Positions 6,032 to 24,890 of a DNA stretch of 25,034 nucleotides are shown piece after piece. The DNA lies in contig JAHLWP010000048.1 of assembly GCA_019057865.1 (NCBI GenBank), forward strand, positions 1 to 25,034, read 5' to 3'. The stretch is from Promethearchaeota archaeon. Lineage in GTDB: Archaea > Asgardarchaeota > Lokiarchaeia > Sigyniarchaeales > SOKP01. Below the pieces are notes generated by a model that was given only the letters and a program-made list of their open reading frames with translations, made no database searches and was not told where the DNA came from. Both the position numbers and the translations under genes were made by a program. Position 1 is the stretch's first letter. Each line of letters opens with the position of its first letter.

Positions 6032-6062
6032 TTTATAAAAAACCTTTATTTTTCAATTGTTA

Positions 6063-8104: not shown

Positions 8105-11100
8105 TTATTCTCTAGATAATTCTTGTAATATCCTTTCTGTTTTATGAACAAAACGCCTGTATTTTTTTGGATCTATTTTCTCTAATTCTTTATTTAATTC
8201 AAGAACTTCATTAAATATAGTTTTTGATAGATTTAATCTGCCAATCTTTCTGTATAAGTAACCTAAATTACTCTTGATTATTGCTTTAAATTTTAACTGG
8301 ATTTTAGATTTAATATTTATTAATTTATCATTATTATTTAATGCTTTTAGATACATTTTTTCAGCTTTATCATAGATTCCTAAATCCTCAAATGATAATC
8401 CTACATAATTTTCAATCTTCATGAGTTCTTCTCTATATAAATAAGAATTTGATACTGAGGGAAAATCAATTAAATCTACTGAAATCATGGGGGTTATCTT
8501 AACCATCTCTAATTTATCAAAATTCTGATAAAAGAGCCTTATATCGTCAAAAATATCGTTAATATATTTTAGTTGCTTTCCTGGGTTATCTTCTTCTAGA
8601 TCTAATATATAGTCTAAAGCTAATGCGAAATTTCTTTTGGTACTCATGAACTTTTTAAATTCTGATTGTATTAATGCTCTTTCATGATGAAGACAAGCAA
8701 GATACTTTGAACATTTCTTGTATATCTTTGCCTGTTTAAAAACCTCAATTGCGTTATGATTACTGATCAAAGCTTCATTTTTTAAATTGAATTTAAAATA
8801 AAGGTGTGAGAGAACTAAATGTACCTTAGCTAAAGATATTAAGTAAAATTCAGGATTAAAATCTGCCAATTCTTCATAATCTTTTTTGCTTTTAAATAAA
8901 GCTTCTTCTGCTTCATTAAATTTGTCTAATTTATTGTAAAGACTTCCTAATTCTTTTTTAACTTTAGCTAAACGAGGAAAAAATATTTTAGGATTGATTT
9001 CTGCTATTCTTTGGTATATTTTTAAATCTAATAATTTTGCTCTAATTGCTTTATCATAGTGGTTTAGATCCATATAGAATTTACCAAGTTGATCTGTATA
9101 TATCTCAACATAGTGTAGAAAAATCTCTGGATATCTAAAAGCTAACCTTTTTCTGACTTTTTTTGCTGTTAAAAAACAAATCTCTGCGTCTTTTAATTTA
9201 TTTTGATTCAAATATATTTTAGCTAGATCATTATAAGTGGTATCTACATAATACAAAAATAATTCTGGATTCTTTTTTGAAAGTTTTAAGTTAATCTTCA
9301 ATGCTTCTTTATATGCATTTTCAGCTTCGAAAGGCTTATTTAAGCCACGGTAGAAATTACCTAATCGATTTTGTATATCCGCGACATTGTTTTCAAATAA
9401 ATCAGGATAGTATAAGGCTAGTTTTTGGGCTTTACTTAATGCTTTTAAAAAAGATTCTTCTGCTTCTTCAAATTTTTTTGATTTAGAATATAATGTTCCT
9501 AAATTACGATGAGACCAAAAGATACTTTTATCTATTTTGAAGGGCTTGCTTTTGCTAAGTAATTTCTTTATTTTTAATGATTCTTTGAATAATCTTTCGG
9601 ATTCATCGAAATCTTTCAAATTTATAAAAAGAAGGGCAAGTTGGTCCCATGTCCAAGCTTTGTAATATAAATAATATTCTGGATTTTTAATTGATAGATC
9701 TTCATAAATCTTTAATGCTTTTAAATGCATTTCCTTAGCAAATTCATATTTTTTCAGTTTTTTATAAATTGCGCCTAAGTTATTTTGTATCCACGCTAAA
9801 TCAGATAAATAAGTCTCAGGATCTCTCTCTGCTAATTTTTCTCTAATTTTTAAAGCTTTTAAAAACTCTTTTTGAGCTTTCTTCTTCATTTGTATCTGAT
9901 TGAATAATAATCCAAGATTTCCCCGCGTCCATGCTAAATCTGCTAGATAATCATTACGATCCGTCAATGTTAGTTCTTTTCTTATCTCTAAAGCTCGTTT
10001 AAATGAATTTTCTGACATTTTATAGCTTTTTTTTGCTTTATATAAAAGTCCTAAATTACCATAAGTCCATGCTAAATGTGGTAGGAATATATTGGGTTCT
10101 TTTTTAACTAAATTTAATTTGGCACTCAAAGCTAAATTATGAAAATCTTCCGCCTTATCATATCTTCTTAATTTCATACACAAGGTTCCCAATTTGTCAT
10201 GTACGTCAGCAATGTTATCTTGGTACAAATTAGGACTTAATTCTTCTAAATTAAGATAAATTTTTAATGCTTCATTGTAGGAATCCTCTGCCTTAGAGTA
10301 TCTTCGCGTAGTATAATAAAAAATTCCAAGCTGATAATATATTTTAGCTTTTAATTCACCTTCAAAAAATTCTTTTAATTTCTTTCCAAGCGTAACCAAC
10401 TTATTTAAGCTATATTGCTTTAATAATTCTGGGTTCTCGATACTTAAAAAATTTAATGCTAAATCTTCAGTAGTCTCCAATAATGAATTATGGTACATTA
10501 ATTCTGTAAAATCTTCCGGATTTTCACCGTATATTTCTTTCTTTTTGTTATAGTAATTCACAGCTAGCTGATGACTAATGGTGTCTACATCAAGTCCTAA
10601 TGACTCTTTTATATGATCATATATGAATTCATATGCCTCCTCTTGAATATCTTTCTTCTTTAAAAACCCAGCATTTATCAACTTTTTAAAGCTTGATTCA
10701 AAATCATTATCTTGATAAAGAGTTTCAATAACTCTTTTGTTAATATTATTTTCAATATCTGAATTTATAATTGACAAATTCTTTAATAGCTCGTACTCTT
10801 CATCAGAGAGAATTTCCATAACAATTCTGTTTAAATATTCCTCAGTTTTTTCAGAATCAACATTCAATATAATATTTGGATCAAAGATCTCCATTTTATC
10901 AACATTAATATGGTCATAGTTTCTCACAATTAACTCCATTGAAATAGGATGTCCTTCTGTTATATTACTTATCTTTTCTTTGTTCGAATCACTTATATTT
11001 TTATGAAAACGTTCGCTTAACATTTCGATATAATCAATTCTATCAACTTCATCTAATCCCTTGAGATGATGAATTCTTCGGGTATTACCAATCGACTTTC

Positions 11101-12097
11101 GCGAAGAGCAAATAACAAAATCTAAATATTTCACTAAATTTCTCACATCTGAATCAGCAAGATGAAAATCATCAATGAGCAAATGAACTTCTCTTTTTTC
11201 AATTAATTCTGAAATTTTTTTAAACTTAATTTCTTTAACTTCTTGTTTAAGCTCGTTGGTATCAGGAATATATCTTGATAATGCATCAATCACATCATCC
11301 AATATTATCTCATTTCTAAAAACTCTATGATATACATCCCGACATTTATTTTTAAAGATTTTATATCCTGAGCCTGTGATGTAAAATTGTCTAGGGCCTA
11401 AAGCAATTATTTGTTTTCCTCTTAATTTCTGCAATAATAATATCACCTGAATTAGAGAAGTTTTTCCAATACCCCCAACACCATAAACCTCAATACTCTC
11501 ATCTAAATTGTTCATTAAATATGCAATTGATGATCTTCTATTGTAAAAATCTTCCAGTTTCAACTGTCCTTTTGAGTACCATTCAACAATATTATTTACT
11601 AAATGATCAGTAATTGTATTTACGATTCCAGTATCTTCAATATTTTGTATTTTAAAATAATTCTCTTTACCAACTTCTTCAAGAAATTGTTTCACTTTAT
11701 CTTCGATATTTATTTCATTCGATATTGTTGAAGTAGTTTTGACCTTAGAGTACTCAGGAATAAAGTAAGATTGATGTAATATCCCTTCTGCTTCAGTTAC
11801 TTTATATTCGCAGTGGGTATAGGATATTGGTTCATTTTTTATCTTCAGTGGACAATTTTCTGCTTTGCAATCTTCAATATTACACTCGTTCAATAAAGTA
11901 CCATAAAAAGGAGTTATTAAAAAAATTACGATATCACTTTTCCTAATCTCCCTTATACTCACATCTTGCGAGTAATTGCCATTTGGAATAAAATTTTCCA
12001 TCCCCACTCCATCAATGCTTTCATTTAAAGCATCAAGTATCAATTCCCTAAAATTTTCTAGATCTTTTGAAGTGGAACTTAAAAAAACTCTAAGCAT
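8105..12097 (-). CDS. NLR-like STAND NTPase: DUF4062 (TIR-like) - NB/AAA - TPR array
   Basis: N-terminal RVFLSSTSKDL...SDIVIFLITPFYG...SYTHCEY (DUF4062). Walker A GVGGIGKT, Walker B LLIDDFH, GHP motif and a wHTH-like region. About 15 TPR units of ~46 aa (LAxxxxNLGxLY...ALxI). Confidence 0.9.
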   Translation of the reverse strand: MLRVFLSSTSKDLENFRELILDALNESIDGVGMENFIPNGNYSQDVSIREIRKSDIVIFLITPFYGTLLNECNIEDCKAENCPLKIKNEPISYTHCEYKVTEAEGILHQSYFIPEYSKVKTTSTISNEINIEDKVKQFLEEVGKENYFKIQNIEDTGIVNTITDHLVNNIVEWYSKGQLKLEDFYNRRSSIAYLMNNLDESIEVYGVGGIGKTSLIQVILLLQKLRGKQIIALGPRQFYITGSGYKIFKNKCRDVYHRVFRNEIILDDVIDALSRYIPDTNELKQEVKEIKFKKISELIEKREVHLLIDDFHLADSDVRNLVKYLDFVICSSRKSIGNTRRIHHLKGLDEVDRIDYIEMLSERFHKNISDSNKEKISNITEGHPISMELIVRNYDHINVDKMEIFDPNIILNVDSEKTEEYLNRIVMEILSDEEYELLKNLSIINSDIENNINKRVIETLYQDNDFESSFKKLINAGFLKKKDIQEEAYEFIYDHIKESLGLDVDTISHQLAVNYYNKKKEIYGENPEDFTELMYHNSLLETTEDLALNFLSIENPELLKQYSLNKLVTLGKKLKEFFEGELKAKIYYQLGIFYYTTRRYSKAEDSYNEALKIYLNLEELSPNLYQDNIADVHDKLGTLCMKLRRYDKAEDFHNLALSAKLNLVKKEPNIFLPHLAWTYGNLGLLYKAKKSYKMSENSFKRALEIRKELTLTDRNDYLADLAWTRGNLGLLFNQIQMKKKAQKEFLKALKIREKLAERDPETYLSDLAWIQNNLGAIYKKLKKYEFAKEMHLKALKIYEDLSIKNPEYYLYYKAWTWDQLALLFINLKDFDESERLFKESLKIKKLLSKSKPFKIDKSIFWSHRNLGTLYSKSKKFEEAEESFLKALSKAQKLALYYPDLFENNVADIQNRLGNFYRGLNKPFEAENAYKEALKINLKLSKKNPELFLYYVDTTYNDLAKIYLNQNKLKDAEICFLTAKKVRKRLAFRYPEIFLHYVEIYTDQLGKFYMDLNHYDKAIRAKLLDLKIYQRIAEINPKIFFPRLAKVKKELGSLYNKLDKFNEAEEALFKSKKDYEELADFNPEFYLISLAKVHLVLSHLYFKFNLKNEALISNHNAIEVFKQAKIYKKCSKYLACLHHERALIQSEFKKFMSTKRNFALALDYILDLEEDNPGKQLKYINDIFDDIRLFYQNFDKLEMVKITPMISVDLIDFPSVSNSYLYREELMKIENYVGLSFEDLGIYDKAEKMYLKALNNNDKLINIKSKIQLKFKAIIKSNLGYLYRKIGRLNLSKTIFNEVLELNKELEKIDPKKYRRFVHKTERILQELSRE

Positions 12098-12322
12098 AAT
12101 TTAAAACCCTCAATTATAATTTATATTAATAAAAAGGATCTCTACCTAGTTAAGAATACACCTAATTAGTTGATTTCAAAAATTTTTTACAAAATTGAAT
12201 ATATAATTAAATTAGATTTTTCTCTATTTATATCTTTTAATCAAAAAATTTCAAACTCAGATCATTAAATACTTTGTTTTTTAAGTAGAGTAATTCTAGT
12301 TATGTGAAGTATTTATGATTAA

Positions 12323-13656
12323 TTATTCATGTAAAACAATTTCTCTCCAATTTGGCTCAATATCACTTAAAATAAAATCCAGGATCTCTTCGGCAACAGG
12401 TTTTATGAGATCCTCCCCTGTTAAAGAAACATCAATCAAAAAATCAATAGTAGTATATCCAATATTGATCAACTCAAAGCGTATTTGTTCGTGTTTTCTT
12501 TCAGAATCATACATATCTTCTGGAGAAACAAATCTTAATTGATAGTAATCATGAATTAGATCATTAATTCTAGTAATTAATTTATCATCCCTCTCTCCGA
12601 ATTCAAATTCGAACTTAGGTAATTCAACATCAATATTATCATGAATTGATTTCAACCTTTCTATTATAAATCGTGTTTTTAAATCTGGATCGTGATCTAA
12701 TAGATTTTCTGCTAAATCAATCTCACCAGCATCTATTTCCAAAAAGGAGAAGGGAAGAGTACTTAAATTATTATCTGATAAAAACAAATATTGAAATTCC
12801 ATACGACCAAATGATTCTGGGAGACTTGAAATTATATTATGGCTTAAATCTAAAATTCCAAGATAATTTAAATCTACAATAGAATCAGGCAAAAATTCTA
12901 TTTTATTATTTGATAAACTTAAAAAATCAAGATGTTTTAACTCATCAATCCATCCTGGAAGTGATTCTAGATTAACGTTATCTAAAATCAATGCATTTAA
13001 GTTCTCAATTTTCCTTAAAGATTCAGGTATTCGTTCTATATTACAATTACATATTCCAATTCCGTCAATTGCATTATTTTCATTTATTAATAAAGCAAGT
13101 TTTTCAAAATCATAATTAATTCTTCAAAAGATTCCAAATAAATGAAGAATTCACCAGTTATAGATTCAATTTCTTCAAGAACTTCAACTTCTTGTTTTGG
13201 CAAGTACACACCCCTAAAAAATCTGCGTTCAACTTTAGGTTTAGGTGGAGTTTCACTTTGAATCAATTCTAAAATTAGTTTAATATGGTCTAGTAGTTTA
13301 TTTAAATGATTTTCTAAAGAAGCACCAATCGCGTTATACCACTGTATATCACCAAGATAATATTCGAACTTTCCACTCGGCTCGACATCTTCAATTCTAA
13401 ATGGGATGATATTAATCTCATTCTTTCCTCCTATAGTCAACTCCCTTCCTACATGTTTTGATAAATTAGCTTGTTTTGAGAAAACAAGTAAAATTAGATT
13501 GGAATTTTTAATTGCATTTACAATTGAATTTTCCCATTGACTTCCAGGTGTAGCATCACGATGATCGATCCAACACTTAATATCATGCGTCTCTAAATAA
13601 TCGCAGAGTGTATTAGCTATTGAATCATCTTTACTTGAATGGCTTATAAAAATCAT
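12323..13656 (-). pseudogene. Frameshifted TIR-LRR-CTD gene (ORFs 13087-13656 and 12323-12991 are one gene), paralog of 20846-22180
   Basis: Changing frame near 13114-13121 gives NYDFEKLALLINENNAIDGIGICNCNIERIPESLRKIENLNALILDNVNL, which runs without a stop into ORF 12323-12991. It is collinear with the paralog's NNEFKNLGLLLSEENTVEGIGILDCNLEEMPESMRNIDNLNVLILDNTNL. Confidence 0.9.
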
Positions 13657-13791
13657 ATCATATAATAATGGATTTTAATTATGATTAAGTAGATATTATT
13701 TTTAAGGATTTCCTGTATTAGAAAAGCTCACAAAAGTATATTAAAATTGTTTTCTCATTTTTAAATATCAAAAGGAAATCAAAAAAATAAA

Positions 13792-14016
13792 GTGACTAAA
13801 ATCGAAAACCAATTTGTAATTGTTAATGGAGAGAAAATCTTCGTAGATAAGGAAGGATATCTTGATTTAACAAGGGAAAAAATTACTGATATGGATGAAA
13901 TTATCGGACTTGAAAATATTGAGGGTTTAAAAGTACAATTTAAATCTCGAATTGTAAATTTTGAGGATTTTATGATTAAATTGATTAAAATAATAAAAAA
14001 TGAAAGGTATCGATAG
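13792..14016 (+). pseudogene. Truncated LRR gene stub (N-cap and first repeat only)
   Basis: FVIVNGEKIFVDKEGYLDLTREKITDMDEIIGLENIEGLKV resembles the N-terminus of 2564-3880 (YVIYKGIKYELKSGELDLSSKNIEDITKIKGLTKLTDLTV). The LRR pattern then stops. Confidence 0.65.
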
Positions 14017-14034
14017 TCAAATAAATAATTGACT

Positions 14035-15486
14035 TTAGATCGAATTTTTTAATAAATCAAGTATTAATTGGTTAAAATATCTATTAGGATTTGTTTTTTC
14101 ATTAATCATTGGTTCAGAAGGTTTATAAAAGGATAATATCTTAAAAACAAGTCCGGAGCTTAAAATAATATTCCCAACTGTTTCTAATCCATGAGAATCA
14201 CTTCCAATTGTAAAAATTGGTTTTTTATCTGAGATGTTATATTTTGCATATTCTTTTACCATATTAAAAAAGAGTTCAATAACCTCTTCTAAGGAGTTTT
14301 TGGCATAATGGTTATAATTTGTATATTTTAAGTTGAAAATTTCGATTCCTTTTAGCCCTTTTTCTAATAATTCTGTAATATTTTCTTTTGTTTCATAATT
14401 GTAATAACCTACATGTGCTAATATGCTTATTCCAGAATGTTTATCTGCCCATTTAATAACCTCTTCAACAGGGACATTTCCCCAGAATTTCTTATCGTGG
14501 ATCCTATCTGTTGCTTTATTAAGAAGTTCATTTGTATATAAATCAAATCCTTTTAGCGCCCATCTTTGAAAATTGTCCAATTCAGGAAAATATACCAATA
14601 TATCTCTTCTATCATCAATCCAATCATTAGATTTTTTTATTCCGGTTGCCACTTCTATTCCCGGGATTACATCAATATTGAATATTGTACCAATCTTTAT
14701 TGCTTTACAAACACCATCAAAATTGTTGTGATCAGTAAGAGAAATTGTTTTTAGTCCAATTTCCTTAGCTTTACATAAAATTTCTCCTACAGATTGACTA
14801 CTACAATCAGAATAATGTGAATGAATGTGTAGGTCCATTAGAATCTGAGATTCACAAATATTTTTTGAATGCTTTTTAGGTATACTTGAAGTTACTAACA
14901 ATTTCTTTAGGCAATCCAATGCGATATCCACTAAGAAAGTTAAGATCTTGTCAAATAATTCATCAGAATAAAGTTTGATATCCTTAATAACTTCAAGATC
15001 GATTTTTTTTGAAGATTTATTTAAAACTCGGTCCTTAAATTCATATATTTCGAGGAATATATTCAGTCTTCTTAAATTCCTTATTATATTTGAAATTTTA
15101 TTTGAGTTATTTACTTTTTCCATGCAATAATTTATATACTTTAAATAATCGTTTTGGATAATATAATCTATAAGATCTTCTTTTCTAATCCTCCTTGCTT
15201 TATGCTTTATCTCCAAAAGACCATCAATGCCATATCCTTTTTGATGAATCTCTTTTCCATTAGAAAAATCAGGGTATTTTCCTTCAATTTTATGATTAAA
15301 TGGCTTAATTTTACGATTAAAACCCCAAAGCATTTCTTTAATCTGTTCTGAGGTCGTTAAAGTGTCACACCAATTTTTAAAAATAAGAAAAATTCTCTTT
15401 AATAGATTTTTTAGTGGTTTTTTTTGACTTTTTAAGATTTCATTAACCCTATCAGTTATATCTTCGCTATAATAATTGATCGACAT
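14035..15486 (-). CDS. PHP-family phosphoesterase with unknown ~215-aa N-terminal region
   Basis: DLHIHSHYSD, SLTDHN, IPGIEV, ILAH, GIE and GSDSH metal-binding motifs (TrpH/YciV-like). Confidence 0.88.
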   Translation of the reverse strand: MSINYYSEDITDRVNEILKSQKKPLKNLLKRIFLIFKNWCDTLTTSEQIKEMLWGFNRKIKPFNHKIEGKYPDFSNGKEIHQKGYGIDGLLEIKHKARRIRKEDLIDYIIQNDYLKYINYCMEKVNNSNKISNIIRNLRRLNIFLEIYEFKDRVLNKSSKKIDLEVIKDIKLYSDELFDKILTFLVDIALDCLKKLLVTSSIPKKHSKNICESQILMDLHIHSHYSDCSSQSVGEILCKAKEIGLKTISLTDHNNFDGVCKAIKIGTIFNIDVIPGIEVATGIKKSNDWIDDRRDILVYFPELDNFQRWALKGFDLYTNELLNKATDRIHDKKFWGNVPVEEVIKWADKHSGISILAHVGYYNYETKENITELLEKGLKGIEIFNLKYTNYNHYAKNSLEEVIELFFNMVKEYAKYNISDKKPIFTIGSDSHGLETVGNIILSSGLVFKILSFYKPSEPMINEKTNPNRYFNQLILDLLKNSI

Positions 15487-15565
15487 TTCATGCTCTTAAC
15501 ATATATTTTAAATCAAGAATATCTTAATAAAATCTTATTACATAAGAACAATTGCAAATATGTAT

Positions 15566-15580
15566 AAAAAACTTTAAATA
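15566..15580 (+). promoter_or_regulatory. Archaeal-type BRE/TATA candidate for 15630 gene
   Basis: AAAAAAC-TTTAAATA about 50 nt upstream of the ATG, with GTGAGG (SD-like) at 15611-15616. The AT-rich background lowers specificity. Confidence 0.4.
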
Positions 15581-15629
15581 TTGACTTTTTAATTTAAAGA
15601 GAATTTTTAAGTGAGGAAATCATTTAATA

Positions 15630-17402
15630 ATGGCTTATATCTTTATAAGTTATTCTATTGCAGATTCAAACAAGTTTCAAATATCTAAAATTGCTGAAGA
15701 TTTGACTAAGTTTCCGGAAATTGAAAATACACTTTACTGCGAAGAAGACGCCAGAGAAGATTTTATTAAATATATGAATGAATACATAGAAAAATCTGAT
15801 ATTATGCTCCTTTTTTGTTCTCAAAACTCTAAAAATTCCAAATTTGTAAGTTTGGAATGGAGAGTCGCATTGAGTTTAGAAAAGAAGATTATTCCTGTTT
15901 TCATAAATCCGAAACATGTTCCGCCTTTATTATCTTCGATGATAGGAGCTGAATTCAATGAATTTGATTATAATTCTACATTAAAAAGTATTTACCATTT
16001 AATTTTAAAAAATTTAACCAAATCAGAGGATGAGCTCAAAATTCAAGCTCAAATTCTAACTAAACCTAAGGCAGCTTTTAGGGGAAAACTAGTAAATAAA
16101 AAAGAAATTGAGAATCTAAAGAGAATGCAGTGTGAATTAAATAATTTAATTGAAAAATTTGAAGTAAATGCAGATGGATCAGTAATTTCATTAGATCTCT
16201 CGTCAATTTATTTACAAAAGATTCCTAAATCCATTTTATTTTTTCCAAATTTAATATATATTAATTTTTCTGAAGATTCTTTTGAGAATGATAAAGGTAT
16301 TCGTAGACTGGTATATAATGGCGTAATAGTAAAAATTGAAGGGAAACCTTATGAAGATGGTCAAGTAGAAGCAAGAAAAAAAAGAAGAGAGGAATTAGAA
16401 AAAATTGGTAAAGAAAATCAAGATATAGTTAATCAAGCTCAAAGTTTTATTACGTCGGGAGACTGGGACACAGCTATAAAACTCTTAAAGCGATCAAGAG
16501 AAATATGTGTGCATCAAGGATGGTCTTCAGGTGTAGACTACGCATATAAAATGATTTTAGAATCTGAGAAATATAAAAAAGAAGAAACTGAAAAGAAAGT
16601 GAAAAGAAGAGAAAAGATGTTAATCACATTAAAAAAAATTCCATTAGAAGAAGAAACAGCACTATTTGAATTAGAGAAATTATTAAAAAGAAAATTTAAT
16701 TTGTTCATAGAACCCCAACTGAATAAAAGTATGACTTTCACTATAGAAAATAATAATATTATAGCATTAGATCTCTATAAATGTAAATTAAACAATTTCC
16801 CCGAAGAAATTTTTATGTTTACTAAGCTCAAGTATTTAAATTTAAAACGTAATCAAATTGTTAAACTTCCTAAGTTAATTGGTCTATTTAAATCCCTTAA
16901 GTTATTACGTTTGTCAAATAATATGTTAAATTGTATCCCTAAATCAATATCAAAATTAAAAGCCCTTAAAACTCTAGATTTAAGTAATAATAAACTGAAA
17001 ACTCTCCCAGAATCCTTATCTGAATTGAGATCCCTTGAATATCTCGATTTGAATAACAATGAATTTTCTGATTTTCCTAATTCTATACTTTACATTTCAA
17101 CACTTAAAACTTTATATTTAAATTTTAATAATATTTACACAATTCCAGAGTCTATAGGAAATCTGTCTTCATTAGAAACCTTATACTTAAACTTTAATAA
17201 CATTAGATCAATTCCCGAGTCAATAGGCAAATTAAAATTTCTACAATATCTTAATTTACGTGATAATTATTTATCAGATTTACCCTCTTCCTTAACAGAA
17301 CTAAATTCTATCCAGACATTAGTACTAAGTGGGAATAACTTTAAAACCATCCCCTGGCAGGGGACTTTTTTAGAACGTAGAAACGTAGAAATCATCATAT
17401 AA
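15630..17402 (+). CDS. TIR + short capped LRR + helical/TPR-like linker + LRR array
   Basis: IFISYS...DIMLLFCSQNSKNSKFVSLEW...KIIPVF (TIR). GDWDTAIKLLKRSREIC helical hairpin. About 9 23-aa LRRs (LxxLxLxxNxLxxLPxSIxxL). Confidence 0.9.
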   Translation: MAYIFISYSIADSNKFQISKIAEDLTKFPEIENTLYCEEDAREDFIKYMNEYIEKSDIMLLFCSQNSKNSKFVSLEWRVALSLEKKIIPVFINPKHVPPLLSSMIGAEFNEFDYNSTLKSIYHLILKNLTKSEDELKIQAQILTKPKAAFRGKLVNKKEIENLKRMQCELNNLIEKFEVNADGSVISLDLSSIYLQKIPKSILFFPNLIYINFSEDSFENDKGIRRLVYNGVIVKIEGKPYEDGQVEARKKRREELEKIGKENQDIVNQAQSFITSGDWDTAIKLLKRSREICVHQGWSSGVDYAYKMILESEKYKKEETEKKVKRREKMLITLKKIPLEEETALFELEKLLKRKFNLFIEPQLNKSMTFTIENNNIIALDLYKCKLNNFPEEIFMFTKLKYLNLKRNQIVKLPKLIGLFKSLKLLRLSNNMLNCIPKSISKLKALKTLDLSNNKLKTLPESLSELRSLEYLDLNNNEFSDFPNSILYISTLKTLYLNFNNIYTIPESIGNLSSLETLYLNFNNIRSIPESIGKLKFLQYLNLRDNYLSDLPSSLTELNSIQTLVLSGNNFKTIPWQGTFLERRNVEIII

Positions 17403-17524
17403 ACTCGGTAGCTCTCTTAAATCTTATAAATTTAAACTGCCAAAATTAAATATGTAATTTGGGCTATCTTTTTAGAATATTGTTATTGATAAATTTAATA
17501 TTATAGAATAACTAAATCCATCAC

Positions 17525-19288
17525 ATGGGTATAATAGTTTTTATCAGTTATGCTATAAAAGATTCAAGAATTTTCAAAGTATCAAAACTAGCCAAATTAC
17601 TACTTAATTATACTGAAATTGAGGATGTATTATATTGCGAAGAGTACGCCCGTGATGATTTTATTAAATATATGAATGATTATTTAGATAGATGCAATGT
17701 CCTTCTTCTTTTTTGTTCTCCGAATTCATTGAGATCGGAATTTGTAGCAATGGAATGGAGAGCTGCGATAAGTTTGAAAAAAACGATTATTCCAGTCTAT
17801 TTAGATCCAAAATATATACCTCCATTGCTCTCTCCAAGAATAGGTGTGCAATTTGATGAAAAAGATGTTGGTTTAACCGTAGATAATATAATTCTAACAA
17901 TAAAAAAAAATATTAGTAGTAAAAATTCTGCAATCACTCATTTAGAAGAGAAGATCCCTTTTAGAGGAAAAATAGTGAGGTATAGTGAATATGAAATTTT
18001 AAAAGAACTCCAAGAAGAAATAAATAATTTAGTAGAAATTTTTGAAGTAAATGAGGATGGATTCGTAGTTTCTTTAGACTTTTCTTCAATTTACTTAGAG
18101 AGAGCTCCTAAAACAATAAGGTTTTTTACCAAACTTATGGAAGTTAATTTTTCTGGATACTCTTTTACTTCTGATGGGATGTTGATGAATATAAAATTCG
18201 ATGGATTGATAATCAAATTCGAAGGAAGGCCATACCAAGATGGAGAAGTGAAAGTCAGAATTGAAAGAGAAAATGAGTTATCACGAATAGGAGAAAAAAA
18301 CGCAAAAACAATTGAAGCCGCTAAAGGGTCCTTCTGTTCAGAAGATTGGGATAAGGCCATTAAATTATTTCAGCGTTCCAAAGAGATTTGTTTGGAGCAA
18401 GGGTGGTTTGGAGGTTTTAAATTTGCTGAAAGAATGATTATAAAGGCAAAAGAAGAATTTAGAAAAGAAAATGAACAAATTAAGAAAGGAATAAAAGTAA
18501 GAGAAGAAATATTTAAACTGCTACCAGATCATGAAATAAAAATACTTCAAAATATTGAGAAAAATTTAAATAAACCTTTTATTTTAGTAGAAGAGATAAA
18601 AGATAATACTAGAATGGCTTTTACTGTAAAAAATAACCACATTTCAGGTATAAGCCTTTACAAAGAGGGAGCTATTCAGTTTCCAGAAGAAATATCGCAA
18701 TTAACATATCTTAAGAAATTAAATTTAAGGCGTACGTATAATTTGATTACTCTCCCTGAAGTTTTTGGAGAGATAACCTCTCTTGAAGAACTATATCTAC
18801 AAAACTGTAAAGTAACACAAATCCCAGATTCATATCAGAATCTAACTTCTCTTAGAATTCTTGAATTAAATAGAAATAATCTTGAAAGCTTTCCACCCTT
18901 TCTCGGTAAATTGCAATCACTTGAATTTCTTGATTTAAGAGGAAACTTATTGTCTGAAGTTCCAGATTCTATTGGAGACCTCAAATCACTTCATACATTA
19001 TATCTAAATTTCAATAAGTTAAGAAGACTTCCAGAAACTATTGGCAACCTAACTGCTTTGAAAACCCTTTATCTTAATTTTAATATGTTAATTACTCTTC
19101 CAGATTCGATTTGTGAGTTAAAATCACTCGAATACCTTAATTTGCGCGATAATTTTCTTACAATATTACCAGAAAAATTAGCAGATATTATATCGCTAAA
19201 AAAACTTGTCATATATGGAAATAACTTTAAAGAAGTTCCAAGACAAGCTTATTACTTAGAAGATAGAGGAGTAGATGTTCTTAAATAA
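17525..19288 (+). CDS. TIR + short capped LRR + helical/TPR-like linker + LRR array (tandem paralog of 15630-17402)
   Basis: Same architecture and collinear along the full length (YCEExARxDFIKYMN, EGxPYxDGxV, YLNFN twice, NLRDN). TIR motif SEFVAMEW. Confidence 0.9.
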   Translation: MGIIVFISYAIKDSRIFKVSKLAKLLLNYTEIEDVLYCEEYARDDFIKYMNDYLDRCNVLLLFCSPNSLRSEFVAMEWRAAISLKKTIIPVYLDPKYIPPLLSPRIGVQFDEKDVGLTVDNIILTIKKNISSKNSAITHLEEKIPFRGKIVRYSEYEILKELQEEINNLVEIFEVNEDGFVVSLDFSSIYLERAPKTIRFFTKLMEVNFSGYSFTSDGMLMNIKFDGLIIKFEGRPYQDGEVKVRIERENELSRIGEKNAKTIEAAKGSFCSEDWDKAIKLFQRSKEICLEQGWFGGFKFAERMIIKAKEEFRKENEQIKKGIKVREEIFKLLPDHEIKILQNIEKNLNKPFILVEEIKDNTRMAFTVKNNHISGISLYKEGAIQFPEEISQLTYLKKLNLRRTYNLITLPEVFGEITSLEELYLQNCKVTQIPDSYQNLTSLRILELNRNNLESFPPFLGKLQSLEFLDLRGNLLSEVPDSIGDLKSLHTLYLNFNKLRRLPETIGNLTALKTLYLNFNMLITLPDSICELKSLEYLNLRDNFLTILPEKLADIISLKKLVIYGNNFKEVPRQAYYLEDRGVDVLK

Positions 19289-19364
19289 ATGTAATTTTTA
19301 CGATATTGTATTTTAGATAAAAGAGAATTAAGTGGCTTTTAAAAAATTATTCACATTTTTTAAT

Positions 19365-19388
19365 TGTGGTTAATTGGAATTATTTATG
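19365..19388 (+). repeat. Left half of the 2480-2517 element
   Basis: TGTGGTTAATTGGAATTATTTATG, 23/24 identical to 2480-2503. Ends 2 nt before the stop codon of 19391-20746. Confidence 0.7.
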
Positions 19389-19390
19389 GT

Positions 19391-20746
19391 TTAAATAAAA
19401 AAATCTTCACGCGTTACTATCTCTTTCCAGTTTGGTTCTATGTCACATAATATAAAACGCAATATCTCTTCAGCGACATATTGAATTTCAAGATCACCTA
19501 ATAGAAATTCATCATCTAATAACCTATCTATGCTCGTATACCCTATTTCAATTAATTCATAACATATTTTATCTTGCCATCTCTCGCTTTCTAAAAATTC
19601 TTCAGATGTGATTGAATATAAGCTATAATATTCCTCAATTAATTTGTTAATTTTATCAATCTTATCTTTATCTCTCTGTTCAAATTCAAATATAAATTCT
19701 GGTAATTCTATATCAATCAGATATGGATCAAATTTGTGAATCACTTCAATAATATATCTAGTTTTCAAATCTGGCTCCCTTTCCAACGGATTTCCATTTA
19801 AATAAATTTCGTTTGCTTTGATATTTAAAAAAGAAAAGGGTAGTGTAGCTAATTTATTACCATTTAAAAAAAGAATCTGAAATTCCATAAACCCAAAGGA
19901 TTCTGGTAGAAAAGAAATATTGTTATTGCTTAAATCTAAGATATCCAGATAATTAAGATCTACAAATCTTTCAGGCAATTTGCTTAAATAATTGTCACTC
20001 AAACATAAAAAACCAAGATGATTAATGTCTGTAATCCAATCTGGTAGATCTTTTAATTCAACATGACTTAAAACAAGTGTGTTCAAAGTTTTAATATTTT
20101 TTATGGAATTAGGCAAATTTTCTAATTTACAATTTTTAATTCCAATTCCTTGGACAGAATTTTCTTCATTGAGTAAGAATGCAAGGTGTCTAAAATTCTC
20201 GTTTATTAGAAATTCATTATCCTCTAAAAACTCAAACGATTTTTCTGTTATTGATTCAATTTCTTCCAGTGTTTCTACTTCGTTCTTTGGTAAATGAATA
20301 CCTCTAAAAAACTCACGTGTAATTTCTTTTAGATCTTGTTCAATTACTCTTATATTGCAGATTTTTAAAATAATACCATATATTTCTTTTACTTTTCCCT
20401 CAAGATCTTCTTTATTAAATTTAACTCGTAAATGACCTCTCAAGGGAATTGGCACACTATCCTCATTTTCAAAAATAGGAATAATTTTTTTACCAATATC
20501 TAAGGCGCCTTTCCACTCCATTTTTACATATTTATTTTCAATAGAATTCTCAGAACAAAATAAGATCATAACATCAGATTTTTTTACATATTCTTGGATG
20601 TATTCATAAATATCTTCAAATGAAATCTCTTGGTAGTAATAAACATCCTCAATTTCAGAATATCTTTTCAAAAGATTTGCCATATGACCTATTTGAAAAG
20701 TAGATGTATCTTCACTACAATAACTAAAAAAGAGGTTAAGCACCAT
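19391..20746 (-). CDS. TIR-LRR protein with acidic helical C-terminal domain
   Basis: LFFSYC...DVMILFCSENSIENKYVKMEW...KIIPIF (TIR), about 5 LRRs, and a C-terminal PDLKTRY...ELIEIGYTSID...DIEPNW domain. Confidence 0.9.
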   Translation of the reverse strand: MVLNLFFSYCSEDTSTFQIGHMANLLKRYSEIEDVYYYQEISFEDIYEYIQEYVKKSDVMILFCSENSIENKYVKMEWKGALDIGKKIIPIFENEDSVPIPLRGHLRVKFNKEDLEGKVKEIYGIILKICNIRVIEQDLKEITREFFRGIHLPKNEVETLEEIESITEKSFEFLEDNEFLINENFRHLAFLLNEENSVQGIGIKNCKLENLPNSIKNIKTLNTLVLSHVELKDLPDWITDINHLGFLCLSDNYLSKLPERFVDLNYLDILDLSNNNISFLPESFGFMEFQILFLNGNKLATLPFSFLNIKANEIYLNGNPLEREPDLKTRYIIEVIHKFDPYLIDIELPEFIFEFEQRDKDKIDKINKLIEEYYSLYSITSEEFLESERWQDKICYELIEIGYTSIDRLLDDEFLLGDLEIQYVAEEILRFILCDIEPNWKEIVTREDFFI

Positions 20747-20845
20747 TTATAATACAAGAAAAATTATGTTCTGTCCTTACTAAAAATTAAGGTTTTCTCT
20801 ATTAAAAATATTTAATATACTATTGTATATAAGATAGACATTTTT

Positions 20846-22180
20846 TTAATTCTCGTTTAATATGATATCTTTCCAGTTTGGTTCAATATCAACTAAAATT
20901 AAATCTAAAATCTCTTTAGCAGTACGTTTTATATCATGTTCCCCTCCTAAAAAAACATCAATTAAATGGTCTATGCTGGTATATCCAATAGTGATAAGTT
21001 CGAAGCAAATCTGTTCCTGTTTTCTTTCAGAATCAAACATATCTTCTGGGGAAACAATATTCAGCTGATAATAGTCATAAATTAGGTCATCAATTCTCTT
21101 AATTACATTCTCGTCTCGTTCAAAATCAAATTTGAATTTCGGTAAGTCAATATCGACATTATCATACCTTCTTTTTAAACTTGATAATATATATCTGGTT
21201 TTCAAATCCGGATTCTCTGCGAGGGGATTCTCGCTCAATTCAATTACCCCAGATATATTTACAAATGAAAAGGGAAGTGTTTGTAAATTATTATTAGAGA
21301 GATAGAGGTATTGAAAATCCATATTCCCAGTTGATTCAGGGAGAAAAGAAATATTATTATGACTTAAATTTAGAACCTCCAAATAGTTAAAATCTACAAA
21401 ATTTTCTGGTAAATTTTTTAAGTTATTTTTATAGAAACTCAAAAAATCAATATGTTTGAACTTACTAAACCATTCTGGGATTGATTTTAAATTGGTGTTA
21501 TCGAGGATTAATACGTTTAAATTATCAATGTTCCTCATAGATTCAGGCATTTCCTCTAAATTGCAATCAAGTATTCCTATCCCCTCTACAGTATTTTCTT
21601 CGCTTAATAACAAACCAAGATTTTTAAATTCATTATTAACAATATTAATAAAATCTTCCACATACTCAAAGGATTCACCGGTTATTAGTTCAATTTCTTC
21701 AAGAAATTCTACTTCTTTTTTTGGCAAATATATTCCTCTAAAAAATTCACGTTCTATTGGTGGTCTTGGCAAAGTTTTACCTTTAATCTGACTCAAATAT
21801 TCATTAACATAGTCTAAAAGTTTATTTAAATGGTTTTCCAAGGGAACACCAATTGCATTATACCACTGGATATCCACAAGATAATATTCAAACTTTGAAA
21901 TAGGATGGAATTCCTCGATTTTGATTGGAATAATATCAATTTCATTTTTAGCAGCTAGAGTTAACTCTCGACCAACATGTTTTGAAACGTTAGCATGATT
22001 AGAAAAAACAAGCAACATTAGATCAGAATCCTTAATCGCAGATACGATTGAATCTTCCCATTGACTCCCCGGTTTCGCATCACGATGATCAAGCCAACAT
22101 TCAATATCATTATTCTCTAGATATTCGCAAATTAGGTTAGCAGTCGGATCATCCTTACTTGAATGGCTAATAAAAATCAT
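20846..22180 (-). CDS. TIR(TIR_2-type)-LRR protein with acidic helical C-terminal domain
   Basis: IFISHSSKD...CWLDHRD...PG..WEDSI..AI..S...SKHVGREL...IIP (TIR), about 5 LRRs, and the same C-terminal domain as 19391-20746. Confidence 0.9.
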   Translation of the reverse strand: MIFISHSSKDDPTANLICEYLENNDIECWLDHRDAKPGSQWEDSIVSAIKDSDLMLLVFSNHANVSKHVGRELTLAAKNEIDIIPIKIEEFHPISKFEYYLVDIQWYNAIGVPLENHLNKLLDYVNEYLSQIKGKTLPRPPIEREFFRGIYLPKKEVEFLEEIELITGESFEYVEDFINIVNNEFKNLGLLLSEENTVEGIGILDCNLEEMPESMRNIDNLNVLILDNTNLKSIPEWFSKFKHIDFLSFYKNNLKNLPENFVDFNYLEVLNLSHNNISFLPESTGNMDFQYLYLSNNNLQTLPFSFVNISGVIELSENPLAENPDLKTRYILSSLKRRYDNVDIDLPKFKFDFERDENVIKRIDDLIYDYYQLNIVSPEDMFDSERKQEQICFELITIGYTSIDHLIDVFLGGEHDIKRTAKEILDLILVDIEPNWKDIILNEN

Positions 22181-22406
22181 GAATAAACAATAAAAGGTTT
22201 CTAATTAAGAATACGATGCTATTTTTTTTAAGGATCGTTACGATTTTTCTACAAATTTATCAGAATCATCCTTATAATATTAATTTAATGAGAAATGAAT
22301 TACTCAAGGTTTTAACTATTTCATTTAAATAAAAAACTTTCAATAATATTAATAGTAAATATTGAATATTATTTTATTTTAAATTATAGATAAAACCAAA
22401 TATTTT

Positions 22407-24890
22407 ATGAGCCCTACCAAACCTAATGTAAAACCTGATCATTTGAAAGTCATTAAAGAATTGGAGGAAATTACAAAATCTTCAATTAGTGTTCGTGAAG
22501 TGACTACTCTAACAAATCATTTACTTTATAATGTTAAACAATTTGGTATTTTTATTCAAGATTCTGAAATAATTGGTATAAGATTGCCTGAACATAACTT
22601 TGTGAAAATTCCAGAATCAATAGAAAAACTAAAATCGCTTAAGTTGTTAGATTTAAGCAAAAATCAATTGGAAGAATTACCTGATTCTTTAGGATCTTTA
22701 ACATCACTTAACACTCTTAATTTAAATAATAACCAACTAAAAAACTTACCTCAATCTATTGTTAAACTCAAAAATTTAAGATACTTGAGTTTGAGAGGGA
22801 ATAAATTAGAGCATATTCCTGATTGCATTAAAAACCTAGATTTTCTCAATACTCTGGAAATAGAACATGAACATATTTTAATGCATGAACATGCTCAGAT
22901 TATCAATAAAATAGAAAGAAATTTGGGGAGAATAATTCCTTATCGAAAGGAAATTGGTATGACGTATACACGGGAAGGCGTGATAACCAATATGAATTCA
23001 AATGAGTTTGAGGGATTTCCTATTGAACATGATATTGGAATTAAAGCAGAGAATGGACTTGTTATTGGATTGGGATTAAATGATTGTGGTTTAAGAGAAG
23101 TAAATGAAGAGATTGGAAATTTAAAGACGCTTAAGGAGTTATGGCTTGGTAACCTTGATTACCGATCCTATGGTAGAGAGGCTGAAGCTAATAATTTTAC
23201 ATCTCTTCCAGATTCTATCGGAAATCTTAAGGCACTTGAAATTTTAAATTTAAGCCGAGTCTCGGATTTGAACGTCTTACCTGAAAGTATTAGTGAATTA
23301 GAATCACTAAAAGATTTGACTATAATTGATTGTAGTTTAGCGGCTTTGCCTAAAAACTTAGGAAATTTAACCTCACTTGAAATTCTTTATTTAGTGGCTC
23401 CAAGTAAAACTTTTTTTAATAGACCTCCAGATTCGATAAAAAGATTGAAATTATTACCGGAATATATCTGTGAATTAATCCACCTTAAAAAATTAGATTT
23501 AGACAATCACGATTTACTAATGTTGCCTGAAAATTTTGGCAATTTAACTTCACTTGAAACATTATTCTTGAATGAAAACAACATCTCATCACTACCAGAA
23601 TCATTTGGGAATTTAAGTTTTCTAAGAAAGCTTTTCCTAAAAAATAATAATCTAACAAATCTACCTAATATATTTGGAAACCTTAATTCTCTTAAAGAAC
23701 TTGATTTGGATGGTAATAATTTAATTAAATTACCCGAAAACTTTGGAAATTTGAGTTCTTTAGAGACATTACAAATTGGCAATCTAAAAATGAAAGTAAC
23801 ATCGGTTAAAATCGATTCAGATATGAGTAAGGTTTTTCCCGGTCAGGGAAGATTTGAAAATGACGTGAAGGTGGATCTAAGACCCAATACTTTACTGTCA
23901 CTACCAGAGTCCTTTGGCAATTTAAAATCATTAAAGGATCTATATTTAAGAGGAAATCAATTAGAAACACTTCCGGATTCTTTTAGAAAATTGAAAAAAT
24001 TAGAGACGTTGGATATTCGCTATAATAAATTTAAAAAATTACCTCTCTCATTAGGAGGTTTAGAGAACTTAACGAAACTTCAAGTTGATGACAATCCTTT
24101 TGAAGGAGAAACCAAGAAGTTTTTTGAACGGTATGATAAACGTGAAAATGTATCTACATTTGAAAAATATTTAGAGAAGCGAGATATTCCTGTTTTATTG
24201 AAATTTTTAAGGAAACAAGAAAAGAAAGAGGAAGAAAAGAAGGAAGAAGAACAGATAGAATTAATTCGTGAAAAAGGCAGGGAGATAGTCAAAAAATTGC
24301 CAAAAATTTATAAAGAAATAACTTTTGAGAGACTGAGCTCAAGAACGGGTCTAAAGAAGGATATTCTTGAGAACTTACTAGAAGAAATGATTTATAAAGA
24401 AGAGATAAATGCTAAAATTAGAAAAAATGTCTTGGTATTTGAGATGGAAACCCCTCCAGCTTTAGCAACAACAGAACTTTTAGTTGATATAGGATTCAAT
24501 ATATTCTTAAGCTATTCCACTCTAGACTCCGAGCATTATCAAATTCCAATGGTTGCAAGTGAATTAGAGAAAGATCCATTGATAGATAAGGTCAATTATT
24601 GGGAAGAAAACAGTGGAGAAAACATTGTTGATTTTATGGAAAGAATTCTTAGAATAAGTAAGGTCTTTTTACTTTTCTGTTCGCAAAACGCATTAGACTC
24701 TCAATCTGTTGAGGATGAGTGGCAAGCAGCCTTTCAATTAAGGAAAAGGGGTAAAATGAAGATAATTCCTGTCTATGAAAATGAAGAAGATATCCCGCGG
24801 CTCTTATGGCCTATGTTGAATGTCGAGTATACTAAAAATGACTTTAATGGGTTCCTTAAAAATCTTAAAAAAGAGATATATCGGGAATAA
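22407..24890 (+). CDS. LRR - PCI-like winged helix - C-terminal TIR protein
   Basis: Two capped LRR blocks (23-aa LPESFGNLxSL type) and a charged coil. PCI-like IYKEITFERLSSRTGL..DILENLLEEMI...EINAKI...LVF. C-terminal IFLSYS...VFLLFCSQNALDSQSVEDEW...IIPVY TIR. Confidence 0.88.
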   Translation: MSPTKPNVKPDHLKVIKELEEITKSSISVREVTTLTNHLLYNVKQFGIFIQDSEIIGIRLPEHNFVKIPESIEKLKSLKLLDLSKNQLEELPDSLGSLTSLNTLNLNNNQLKNLPQSIVKLKNLRYLSLRGNKLEHIPDCIKNLDFLNTLEIEHEHILMHEHAQIINKIERNLGRIIPYRKEIGMTYTREGVITNMNSNEFEGFPIEHDIGIKAENGLVIGLGLNDCGLREVNEEIGNLKTLKELWLGNLDYRSYGREAEANNFTSLPDSIGNLKALEILNLSRVSDLNVLPESISELESLKDLTIIDCSLAALPKNLGNLTSLEILYLVAPSKTFFNRPPDSIKRLKLLPEYICELIHLKKLDLDNHDLLMLPENFGNLTSLETLFLNENNISSLPESFGNLSFLRKLFLKNNNLTNLPNIFGNLNSLKELDLDGNNLIKLPENFGNLSSLETLQIGNLKMKVTSVKIDSDMSKVFPGQGRFENDVKVDLRPNTLLSLPESFGNLKSLKDLYLRGNQLETLPDSFRKLKKLETLDIRYNKFKKLPLSLGGLENLTKLQVDDNPFEGETKKFFERYDKRENVSTFEKYLEKRDIPVLLKFLRKQEKKEEEKKEEEQIELIREKGREIVKKLPKIYKEITFERLSSRTGLKKDILENLLEEMIYKEEINAKIRKNVLVFEMETPPALATTELLVDIGFNIFLSYSTLDSEHYQIPMVASELEKDPLIDKVNYWEENSGENIVDFMERILRISKVFLLFCSQNALDSQSVEDEWQAAFQLRKRGKMKIIPVYENEEDIPRLLWPMLNVEYTKNDFNGFLKNLKKEIYRE

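Follow-up and report, generated by a model that had tools for sequence, protein, structure and literature searches.

TIR (Toll/interleukin-1 receptor) signalling is common to bacterial, plant and animal immunity. Here we analyse an array of genes joining TIR domains to leucine-rich repeats (LRRs), found at positions 12323-24890 of a 25,034-bp stretch of DNA (hereafter the window) that makes up an entire contig (C38) of an archaeal metagenome-assembled genome (MAG) of 4.26 Mb and 29% G+C. We consider it probable that the array is the cytosolic sensor arm of a Thoeris-like TIR nucleotide signalling system, most likely one serving immunity or conflict. This interpretation is built on domain content, a conserved glutamate (Glu), purifying selection on the TIR domains, conserved gene neighbourhoods, a correspondence between TIR and receiver clades, and cassette turnover. 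Ligand sensing, NADase activity, the identity of the messenger, its binding by SLOG, the chemistry of the effector and an antiviral role are what we predict from these features.

In the proposed mechanism, the LRR parts, together with their caps, helical module, winged helix or C-terminal domain (CTD), would bind an invader-derived ligand, upon which the TIR domains would assemble and cleave NAD+ to a messenger derived from ADP-ribose (ADPR). The messenger would be read by the TPR-S/SLOG modules of two neighbouring receiver proteins. The output of the 669-aa receiver would be a RelA/SpoT-family pyrophosphokinase arresting growth, either by alarmone-type synthesis or by toxSAS-like pyrophosphorylation; the 700-aa receiver has no enzyme domain. 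The TIR domains fall into two clades, of which clade A (444-type) would signal to the tail-less RelA-SLOG receiver and clade B (the 451, 590, 587 and 827-aa proteins) to tail-bearing SLOG.

Architecture of the array

The initial annotation had described six TIR-LRR genes in three architectures. All six loci and the three architectures stand, each with Pfam TIR_2 and LRR matches (TIR_2 E-values 8e-22 to 7e-12, all above the Pfam cut-off), but only five of the genes are intact, the sixth being frameshifted. A gene for a 483-aa PHP-domain phosphoesterase also lies inside the array (14035-15486, minus strand; Pfam PHP 6.6e-11), and the description of a plain six-gene TIR-LRR array is corrected accordingly.

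The first architecture, TIR-cap-LRR-CTD, is represented by three copies on the minus strand. An intact 444-aa gene with a clade A TIR and five LRRs (20846-22180; TIR_2 8e-22 and LRR_8) encodes its TIR in residues 1-125, with the motif SKHVGRE(72)L. An intact 451-aa gene (19391-20746; LRR444 2e-36, CTD444 2e-32) carries a clade B TIR. The frameshifted copy (12323-13656), a clade A paralog, shares 74% DNA identity with the 444-aa gene and is split into two open reading frames (ORFs), 13087-13656 for the TIR and 12323-12991 for the LRR and CTD. The TIR can be read as far as 13087 and the LRR-CTD frame is uninterrupted from ~13105, the joint falling in an AT-rich run near 13100. Because the frames overlap and their summed length matches that of the intact paralog within ~1 residue, the break is, as assembled, a small frameshifting indel, and a micro-intron of ~30 nt (tRNA-type) was rejected. 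The second architecture, found on the plus strand, consists of a clade B TIR, a cap, a mini-LRR, a three-helix module, another cap and eight LRRs, as defined by Pfam and AlphaFold2 (AF2). It is encoded by a 590-aa gene (15630-17402) and a 587-aa paralog (17525-19288) whose product is 46% identical to the 590-aa protein. In the third, an 827-aa protein (22407-24890, plus strand; LRR_14 6e-54, PCI 7.4e-6, TIR_2 3.2e-13), two LRR blocks precede a PCI-like winged helix (26.5 bits against a cut-off of 22) and a C-terminal clade B TIR (residues 696-827).

The AF2 models, which were built on family alignments, give a consistent view of the first two architectures. That of the 444-aa protein (pLDDT >90 from residue 150 to 444) comprises the TIR, a beta-hairpin-plus-helix cap, five 23-residue LRRs and a six-helix CTD; that of the 590-aa protein (mean pLDDT 81) comprises the TIR, a cap, a mini-LRR of two to three strands, three long helices, a second cap and eight LRRs. 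The best structural match of the LRR part is the LRR of Chlorobium Roco (Z 18.8), followed by Leptospira LRR proteins, SHOC2 and Rsu1, and the array LRRs are of this cytosolic 23-residue type. The CTD that follows the LRRs is an orphan helical domain with no Pfam match even at E-values up to 5. As to its fold, Atlas feature scores of ~0.8 are at chance level, and matches to the LRR part took up the Foldseek/VIA lists, which therefore say little about the CTD. A metagenomic protein of 256 aa (P0223) consists of a minimal TIR and the CTD without LRR, so that the orphan domain goes with the TIR rather than with the LRR.

In the 590-aa protein, the three-helix module separates the mini-LRR from the main LRR (window positions 16362-16700, approximately residues 245-350), and it looks like a mobile helical domain. 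It has a GDWDxAIKL...GW motif and weak TPR-like Pfam matches, and recurs in other Asgard proteins, one of which, of 1597 aa, has three copies in tandem (G175:C261:3178-3966).

The host is a Loki-type Asgard archaeon. This follows from an archaeal small-subunit (SSU) rRNA match in the genome (1454 bits), a full-length actin-family gene (444 bits), VPS28-family matches (seen in none of 14 control genomes), the labels of the named relatives of the array proteins (Promethearchaeota, Lokiarchaeota, Thorarchaeota, Odinarchaeota or Hodarchaeota), the G+C content of the contig (28.1%), which is in line with that of the genome, and the presence of loci homologous to the window in many genomes of the same family. 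An Asgard host is what the initial annotation had considered, naming contig taxonomy as the check.

TIR domains of soluble proteins with a conserved glutamate

The Glu motifs quoted in the initial annotation (FVSLEW, FVAMEW, YVKMEW, HVGREL twice and SVEDEW) are all present. The Glu is invariant in the six copies, in 13 family members and in all 36 TIR domains collected from the window and related loci, as is the S-x-x-V-x-x-E motif (36/36). Single-sequence searches of the PDB returned nothing for two TIR domains, and profile searches were needed. In profile searches against solved structures, the array Glu aligns with the Glu of the S-x-W-x-x-x-E helix in TLR6, oyster TIR-STING and the bacterial NADase Cat1, the position established as the catalytic Glu of TIR NADases. 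The claim that every TIR keeps the catalytic-position Glu is thereby upheld.

Two further statements of the initial annotation, that the proteins have neither a transmembrane segment nor a nucleotide-binding (NB) domain, also proved correct. In all six, the highest 19-residue Kyte-Doolittle mean is at most 1.34, as against 3.01 for the membrane-anchored nuclease encoded on the same contig, and hydropathy reveals no signal-like segment at their N-termini. Neither a STAND/AAA Pfam match nor a Walker A motif was found in any of the six, with the neighbouring 1330-aa STAND protein (GVGGIGKT) serving as a control, and the AF2 middle region of the 590-aa protein consists of the mini-LRR and helices.

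The genes are not scattered over the genome without enrichment near SLOG genes, which is the distribution that the initial annotation had named as contrary to its view. Six of the seven TIR_2 matches in the 4.26-Mb genome lie within the 12.6-kb array stretch, so the clustering is not due to chance.

The array proteins might instead be non-enzymatic adaptors or regulators in a housekeeping or developmental pathway, with the TIR acting as a scaffold as in TLR/MyD88. In favour of such a role, a profile weighted toward clade A scores best, among solved structures, against the TIRs of TLR6, TLR1 and TLR2, and LRR proteins are abundant in Asgard genomes. However, the library of solved structures is heavily biased toward animal TIRs, neither the Glu nor the S-x-x-V-x-x-E motif varies in any of the 36 domains, and the TIR is the most constrained domain of these proteins. 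Moreover, between close relatives these genes may be present or absent, one copy is frameshifted, another survives as a 66-aa remnant, and divergence is mosaic, all of which is typical of conflict genes and not of housekeeping ones; an MNT/HepT pair and a STAND NTPase are encoded on the contig as well. We therefore regard the adaptor role as improbable.

TIR genes accompany the proposed RelA/SpoT-SLOG receivers

The proposed receiver and effector is a 669-aa protein (6063-8072, minus strand) in which Pfam identifies a RelA/SpoT domain, TPR-S and a SLOG domain (LSDAT_prok), and which belongs to a tail-less clade. TPR-S was reportedly defined by Burroughs and Aravind in 2020 (J Bacteriol). The synthetase motifs RxKxxxSxxxK, DxxGxR, GYR and EIQVRT are intact in an alignment to RelQ/RelP-type enzymes. 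The SLOG domain is of the TRPM type (LSDAT_prok, 28.5 bits against a cut-off of 25.4); its profile yields only weak PDB matches, to the TRPM2 N-terminal domain (E 0.3-0.6). A paralogous 700-aa receiver without the synthetase (3929-6031, minus strand) consists of an uncharacterised N-terminal part, TPR-S, SLOG and a C-terminal tail, and matches residues 202-667 of the 669-aa protein (4e-43). These two genes, 4-8 kb from the array, are the only matches to the SLOG receiver in the host genome.

The 669-aa receiver served as query against 400 Asgard species genomes; for every near-full-length homolog, surrounding DNA of up to 20 kb was retrieved and annotated by domain queries and a TIR hidden Markov model (HMM). 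There were 28 such homologs, almost all in the host's family. A TIR gene lies within 3 kb of the RelA-SLOG gene in 18 of the 21 related loci that have usable upstream sequence, and in 15 of these 18 it is the next gene upstream, on the same strand, at a distance of 48-677 nt. By comparison, the host family has 393 TIR_2 matches in 135 genomes, or ~0.8 per Mb, from which a TIR would be expected in ~0.5% of random 6-kb windows. The pair persists through changes of gene order, sensor type and receiver clade, and the three closest metagenomic loci (L002, L003/L004 and L113) contain the genes of the window, differently ordered. The initial annotation had suggested that the array possibly signals to the adjacent SLOG-synthetase and had proposed to examine the co-occurrence of such genes with SLOG effectors; the neighbourhoods of the related loci, as well as the bacterial gene pair described below, lend this link strong comparative support.

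The sensor parts of TIR proteins adjacent to receivers are diverse and include MalT-like TPR, NosD/beta-helix (proteins of 880 to 1900 aa), ArnB_C/winged helix and LRR. Used as a database query, the winged helix and TIR of the 827-aa protein retrieved 70 proteins, all named ones being Asgard; in this clade B family the sensor is an LRR in 14 members and a beta-helix in ~29, the others having SPFH, propeller, TPR or resolvase parts. To judge from domain composition, the TIR stays constant while the repeat scaffold is exchanged, as one would expect of sensors.

When one genome per prokaryotic species was scanned with the 444-aa family, only TIR-domain matches were obtained, all bacterial and 24-45% identical. 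The best bacterial match of the clade A TIR (39%) comes from an Anaerolineae MAG (JARYMM010000050.1, locus L033:7486-13000), where a TIR-propeller-like gene lies directly downstream of an 829-aa RelA_SpoT-TPR-LSDAT_prok-RyR gene. In its RelA, TPR-S and SLOG parts, the product of the latter shares 32-40% identity with the receiver of the window. Both loci thus hold a two-gene module of a TIR and a RelA/SpoT-TPR-SLOG protein, but in the Anaerolineae a propeller-like sensor takes the place of the LRR on the TIR protein, the receiver has a RyR tail, and the receiver precedes the TIR. Because a bacterial locus carries the same gene pair, the TIR-plus-receiver module appears to cross the boundary between Archaea and Bacteria as a unit. 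We found no publication describing a TIR plus RelA/SpoT-SLOG system or its Anaerolineae counterpart.

Each TIR-LRR protein could alternatively be a self-contained sensor and effector that depletes NAD+, as SARM1, TIR-APAZ/SPARTA and TIR-bearing Avs do, in which case the SLOG genes would form a separate system of the same island. Every gene does combine a recognition part with a TIR that has the catalytic-position Glu. In addition, a STAND gene separates the array from the receivers in the window, one related locus (L114) has the PHP gene and a 590-type gene as a cassette with no receiver within 7.5 kb, and defence genes of unrelated systems commonly cluster. The tight and mostly co-directional adjacency of TIR and receiver in 18 of 21 loci, recurring in a bacterium, nevertheless argues against two separate systems, and the one-to-one match between TIR clades and receiver clades is hard to explain by co-residence in an island alone. 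For these reasons, we find self-contained action unlikely and favour signalling from the array to the receivers.

Two TIR clades and two receiver clades

In a maximum-likelihood (ML) tree of the 36 TIR domains there are two clades, each with 100/100 support. Clade A comprises the TIRs of the 444-aa gene, the broken copy, their orthologs and TPR-TIR proteins; clade B comprises those of the 451, 590, 587 and 827-aa genes and of beta-helix and winged-helix TIR proteins. The receivers form the tail-less clade that includes the 669-aa protein, a clade with a C-terminal tail of ~160 aa, and the synthetase-less 700-aa type, which shares that tail and forms a separate clade, nearest by path length to the tail-bearing receivers. 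Clade A TIRs occur in nine loci, all with a tail-less receiver, and clade B TIRs in 14 loci, all with a tail-bearing receiver, while the three loci that have both receiver types carry both TIR clades. In other words, receiver domains are found together with a TIR of the matching clade. It is therefore conceivable, if somewhat short of an even chance, that two TIR clades addressing two receiver clades represent two signal channels, the correspondence resting on few independent events. Linker, LRR and CTD are common to the 451-aa and 444-aa proteins, whose TIRs belong to different clades, a domain swap implying that the same recognition body can be wired to either TIR.

Evolution of the array

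Compared with sister loci, the TIR has the lowest dN/dS of any domain (0.10-0.25), whereas the caps, helical module and LRRs range from 0.3 to 1.0. For the 590-aa gene and its counterpart in L113, dN/dS is 0.12 in the TIR and 0.45-1.03 in the sensor parts. In the closest comparison, the values derive from few substitutions.

Gene content varies even among the closest relatives. The frameshifted copy resides in a 1,554-bp cassette (12303-13856, delimited by blastn and junction read-out) that is cleanly absent from the sister loci L113 and L115, the flanks being otherwise 90-92% identical. A small ORF of ~75 codons (13790-14020, plus strand) lies across the right-hand boundary of this cassette, between the frameshifted copy and the PHP gene; L113, which has a called gene of 35 codons there, shares only its C-terminal half. 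With L115, synteny breaks off at ~19331, ~43 nt after the 587-aa gene, and the block of the 451, 444 and 827-aa genes is missing there; the last 140 bases of the contig have no match in L115 either. In L117 only a 66-aa remnant of a 590-type gene is left. Divergence is equally uneven: between the window and L113, dS is 0.03-0.2 for the PHP and 590-type genes and 1.1-1.7 for the receivers, and the receiver genes (window 3929-8072, L113:1-3982) are 42-70% identical between loci that are otherwise 90-94% identical. This pattern suggests allelic replacement of the receiver module by recombination. Thus, the array evolves by birth and death of cassettes and by allele exchange, as in defence islands. 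The diversified sensor repertoire postulated in the initial annotation is supported by the combination of a constrained TIR with faster repeats and by copies that have been gained, lost, frameshifted or domain-swapped among close relatives.

Relationship to Thoeris and toxSAS systems

A survey of TIR signalling from December 2025 describes eleven Thoeris types, among them a type III with multiple TIRs and a SLOG effector, as well as islands in which six or seven TIR genes accompany several effectors (bioRxiv 10.64898/2025.12.03.692087). In the type VIII effector (ThsI), a TPR domain was predicted by Burroughs and Aravind to sense TIR products (bioRxiv 10.64898/2025.12.03.692087). The text of the survey has no mention of RelA/SpoT, ppGpp or LRR. 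Two surveys of Asgard defence list no Thoeris-like system; one of them reports that an Asgard virus encodes a Tad2-like anti-Thoeris protein, with no canonical Thoeris found in its putative hosts (PMC13700489).

The array system shares two features with Thoeris, namely a TIR with the catalytic-position Glu and, alongside it, a gene for an effector with a signal-binding domain (two SLOG/TPR-S genes on the contig, and the same association in 18 of the 21 related loci). As in Thoeris, the TIR genes stand beside a SLOG/TPR-S protein, a kind of module that reads TIR-made ADPR derivatives, and there are several TIR genes per island for one or few effectors. It differs in having a RelA/SpoT-family pyrophosphokinase as its output domain and a TRPM/LSDAT-type SLOG that shares a polypeptide with TPR-S. 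Furthermore, its TIR proteins are large, with LRR, TPR or beta-helix sensors, and its host is an archaeon. With toxSAS/CapRel it has in common that a conflict system uses as its output a RelA/SpoT-family synthetase domain, the catalytic motifs of which are intact; the differences are that the enzyme of the array's receiver is fused to TPR-S and SLOG sensors and partnered with TIRs, and that it has no fused antitoxin that senses capsids.

A number of observations weigh against assigning the array to a Thoeris-like system. None of the known Thoeris models of PADLOC and NCBIfam scores above threshold on the contig: ThsB matches range from 3.7e-6 to 7e-4, there is no match to a ThsA-type effector, the NCBIfam type III ThcB4 model reaches 29 bits against a cut-off of 220, and the RelA domain matches only an untyped PADLOC candidate (PDC-S33, 4.7e-14). 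The 21 receiver loci are kin, almost all from one archaeal family, and were chosen by the presence of the receiver, so that 18 of 21 overstates the number of independent events; the other three (L006, L030 and L032) have no TIR nearby. The tight operon of the related loci is loosened in the window, where 7.5 kb, with the STAND gene and the broken copy, separate the RelA-SLOG gene from the closest intact TIR gene, and the receiver-less cassette of L114 points the same way. The tie between the 700-aa type and the tailed receivers consists of path lengths and the shared tail, not of a supported node. Finally, in addition to the small number of substitutions behind the dN/dS values, the concave face of the LRRs shows no excess variability (entropy 1.19 vs 1.07, and 0.72 vs 0.96).

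A fuller picture, which we offer only tentatively, is that of an archaeal innate immune repertoire in which cassette-evolving soluble LRR receptors make two orthogonal TIR nucleotides, which are read by two SLOG receivers, one with a RelA/SpoT output and the other with a PHP partner. If this were so, it would constitute a new Thoeris type with a new output chemistry, as the RelA/SpoT-family output is absent from the current eleven-type catalogue, and would be the first LRR-TIR receptor system shown outside eukaryotes. On the main interpretation, too, Loki-type archaea would run a TIR-to-SLOG pathway using LRR, TPR or beta-helix fusion sensors, which would be a plausible candidate target for the Tad2-like proteins of Asgard viruses. 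With its three to five genes, the pathway would also be open to testing as to what nucleotide the TIRs of archaea produce and whether the signals of the two TIR clades are orthogonal.

The PHP phosphoesterase

The 483-aa PHP protein encoded within the array keeps the HIHSHYSD (HxH) metal motif, and its N-terminal 210 aa are family-specific. Full-length homologs, 67-93% identical including these 210 aa, are present in L113, L114, L115/L116 and L117, and in five loci (these four and the window) the PHP gene is divergently paired with a 590-type gene. The homologs are located at L113:8400-9857, L114:6058-7440, L115:3882-5339, L117:1-1326, L118:1927-3378 and L119:8326-9777. In two genomes of another genus (g2), the PHP gene lies ~0.8 kb from a gene of 293-347 aa whose product shares 50-52% identity with the SLOG and tail of the 700-aa receiver, with no TIR within 14 kb. 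Among NCBIfam models, the PHP protein comes closest to nucleoside bisphosphate/cyclic-phosphate phosphoesterases and RNase RNM, the matches being limited to the initial 70 residues of the domain. A single-sequence PDB search returned nothing for the protein, and its N-terminal domain gave no Atlas lead. The PHP gene is a conserved partner and does not merely interrupt the array; judging by these neighbourhoods, the chances are about even that it is a member of the signalling system. As such, it would probably belong to the clade B channel, and it may be either the output of the enzyme-less receiver or an enzyme that processes the signal.

Relationship to eukaryotic TIR-LRR receptors

The initial annotation had considered the array relevant to the origin of eukaryotic innate immune receptors if its host were Asgard. 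The host is Asgard, but the proposed relevance found no support, given that the TIR-LRR-CTD and 590-type architectures were found in only one of 400 Asgard species genomes, the nearest relatives of the clade A TIR are bacterial, and neither the animal Toll-like receptor (TLR) nor the plant TIR-NB-LRR (TNL) architecture is present.

Plant TNLs and the array proteins are alike in having an N-terminal TIR of catalytic type, a C-terminal LRR (in this order in five of the six copies) and a post-LRR domain, in being cytosolic and in residing in fast-turnover gene clusters. The array proteins differ in that they have no NB-ARC/STAND domain or P-loop, their CTD is an orphan helical domain, and their LRRs are of the 23-residue Roco/SHOC2/Leptospira type. 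Animal TLRs also combine LRR and TIR in one chain, and the 827-aa protein is the only one of the six to have the LRR N-terminal to the TIR. However, the array proteins lack the signal peptide, secreted ectodomain and membrane helix of TLRs, and the 827-aa protein has a PCI-like winged helix at the position of the membrane span. In addition, the TIRs of TLRs are scaffolds, and the likeness is at the level of the generic TIR fold. When searched against solved structures, a library heavily biased toward animal TIRs, the clade A-weighted profile matches TLR6 best (45.9 bits, 4.8e-11), compared with 39.6 bits for bacterial Cat1; the best match of the clade B profile is a bacterial-type TIR-TPR protein, and there is no TLR among its matches.

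Vertical inheritance by eukaryotes from an archaeal ancestral state resembling the array could be argued from the Asgard host, from the fusion of TIR and LRR in one polypeptide, TLR-like in order in the 827-aa protein, and from the recurrence of LRR-TIR fusions with a C-terminal clade B TIR in Loki-type genomes, where they are commoner (14 of 70 family members, among many other sensor fusions). The phyletic distribution of the other architectures points in a different direction. The TIR-LRR-CTD architecture and the complete middle region of the 590-type are each found in a single genome out of 400 Asgard species genomes (the latter in the host only), and among 1.84 billion representative proteins the CTD has seven matches, always with a TIR. 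No membrane helix, signal peptide or NB-ARC exists in the array proteins. Outside the host lineage the nearest relatives of the clade A TIR are bacterial, at 30-45% identity, one of them with the same receiver partner, which points to horizontal movement of the module. Since sensors are freely swapped on the same TIR, independent fusion is the simpler reading. We thus regard descent of TLRs and TNLs from such an array as highly improbable; comparison of these sequences favours an independent, recent and lineage-specific fusion of TIR and LRR on a horizontally mobile module. The array looks like a case of convergence with TLRs and TNLs and not like evidence of their ancestry.

Other genes of the contig

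Between the receivers and the array lies a gene for a 1330-aa DUF4062-STAND-TPR protein (8105-12097, minus strand) with the Walker A motif GVGGIGKT. Comparison of its DUF4062 with TIR by hhalign gave a probability of 8% over 25 columns, with a profile of four sequences. In all the closest loci the gene travels with TIR-LRR genes (L002:1838-4840, L003:1971-4961, L113:4015-8016 and L115:1-3498), and in L002 and L003 it is adjoined by a B12-binding radical SAM gene. A seventh gene combining LRR with a TIR-superfamily domain is located outside the array (2564-3880, minus strand). It encodes a 438-aa protein that combines LRRs of the internalin type with a C-terminal domain resembling CAP12/PycTIR (24.9 bits, the cut-off being 24.7), and is kept just downstream of the 700-aa receiver gene, with an ortholog at L002:13453-14769.

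An Rfam search of the contig detected no RNA genes, and the DNA repeats on it are the paralogs themselves and the 69-nt period of the LRRs. The island is flanked by a gene for a membrane-anchored protein with Big_7 and endo/exonuclease-phosphatase (EEP) domains (44-1552, plus strand) and by an MNT/HepT toxin-antitoxin pair (1756-2410, plus strand), all identified by Pfam. The MNT and HepT genes overlap by 8 nt, and an MNT-like gene is also found after the array in L115.

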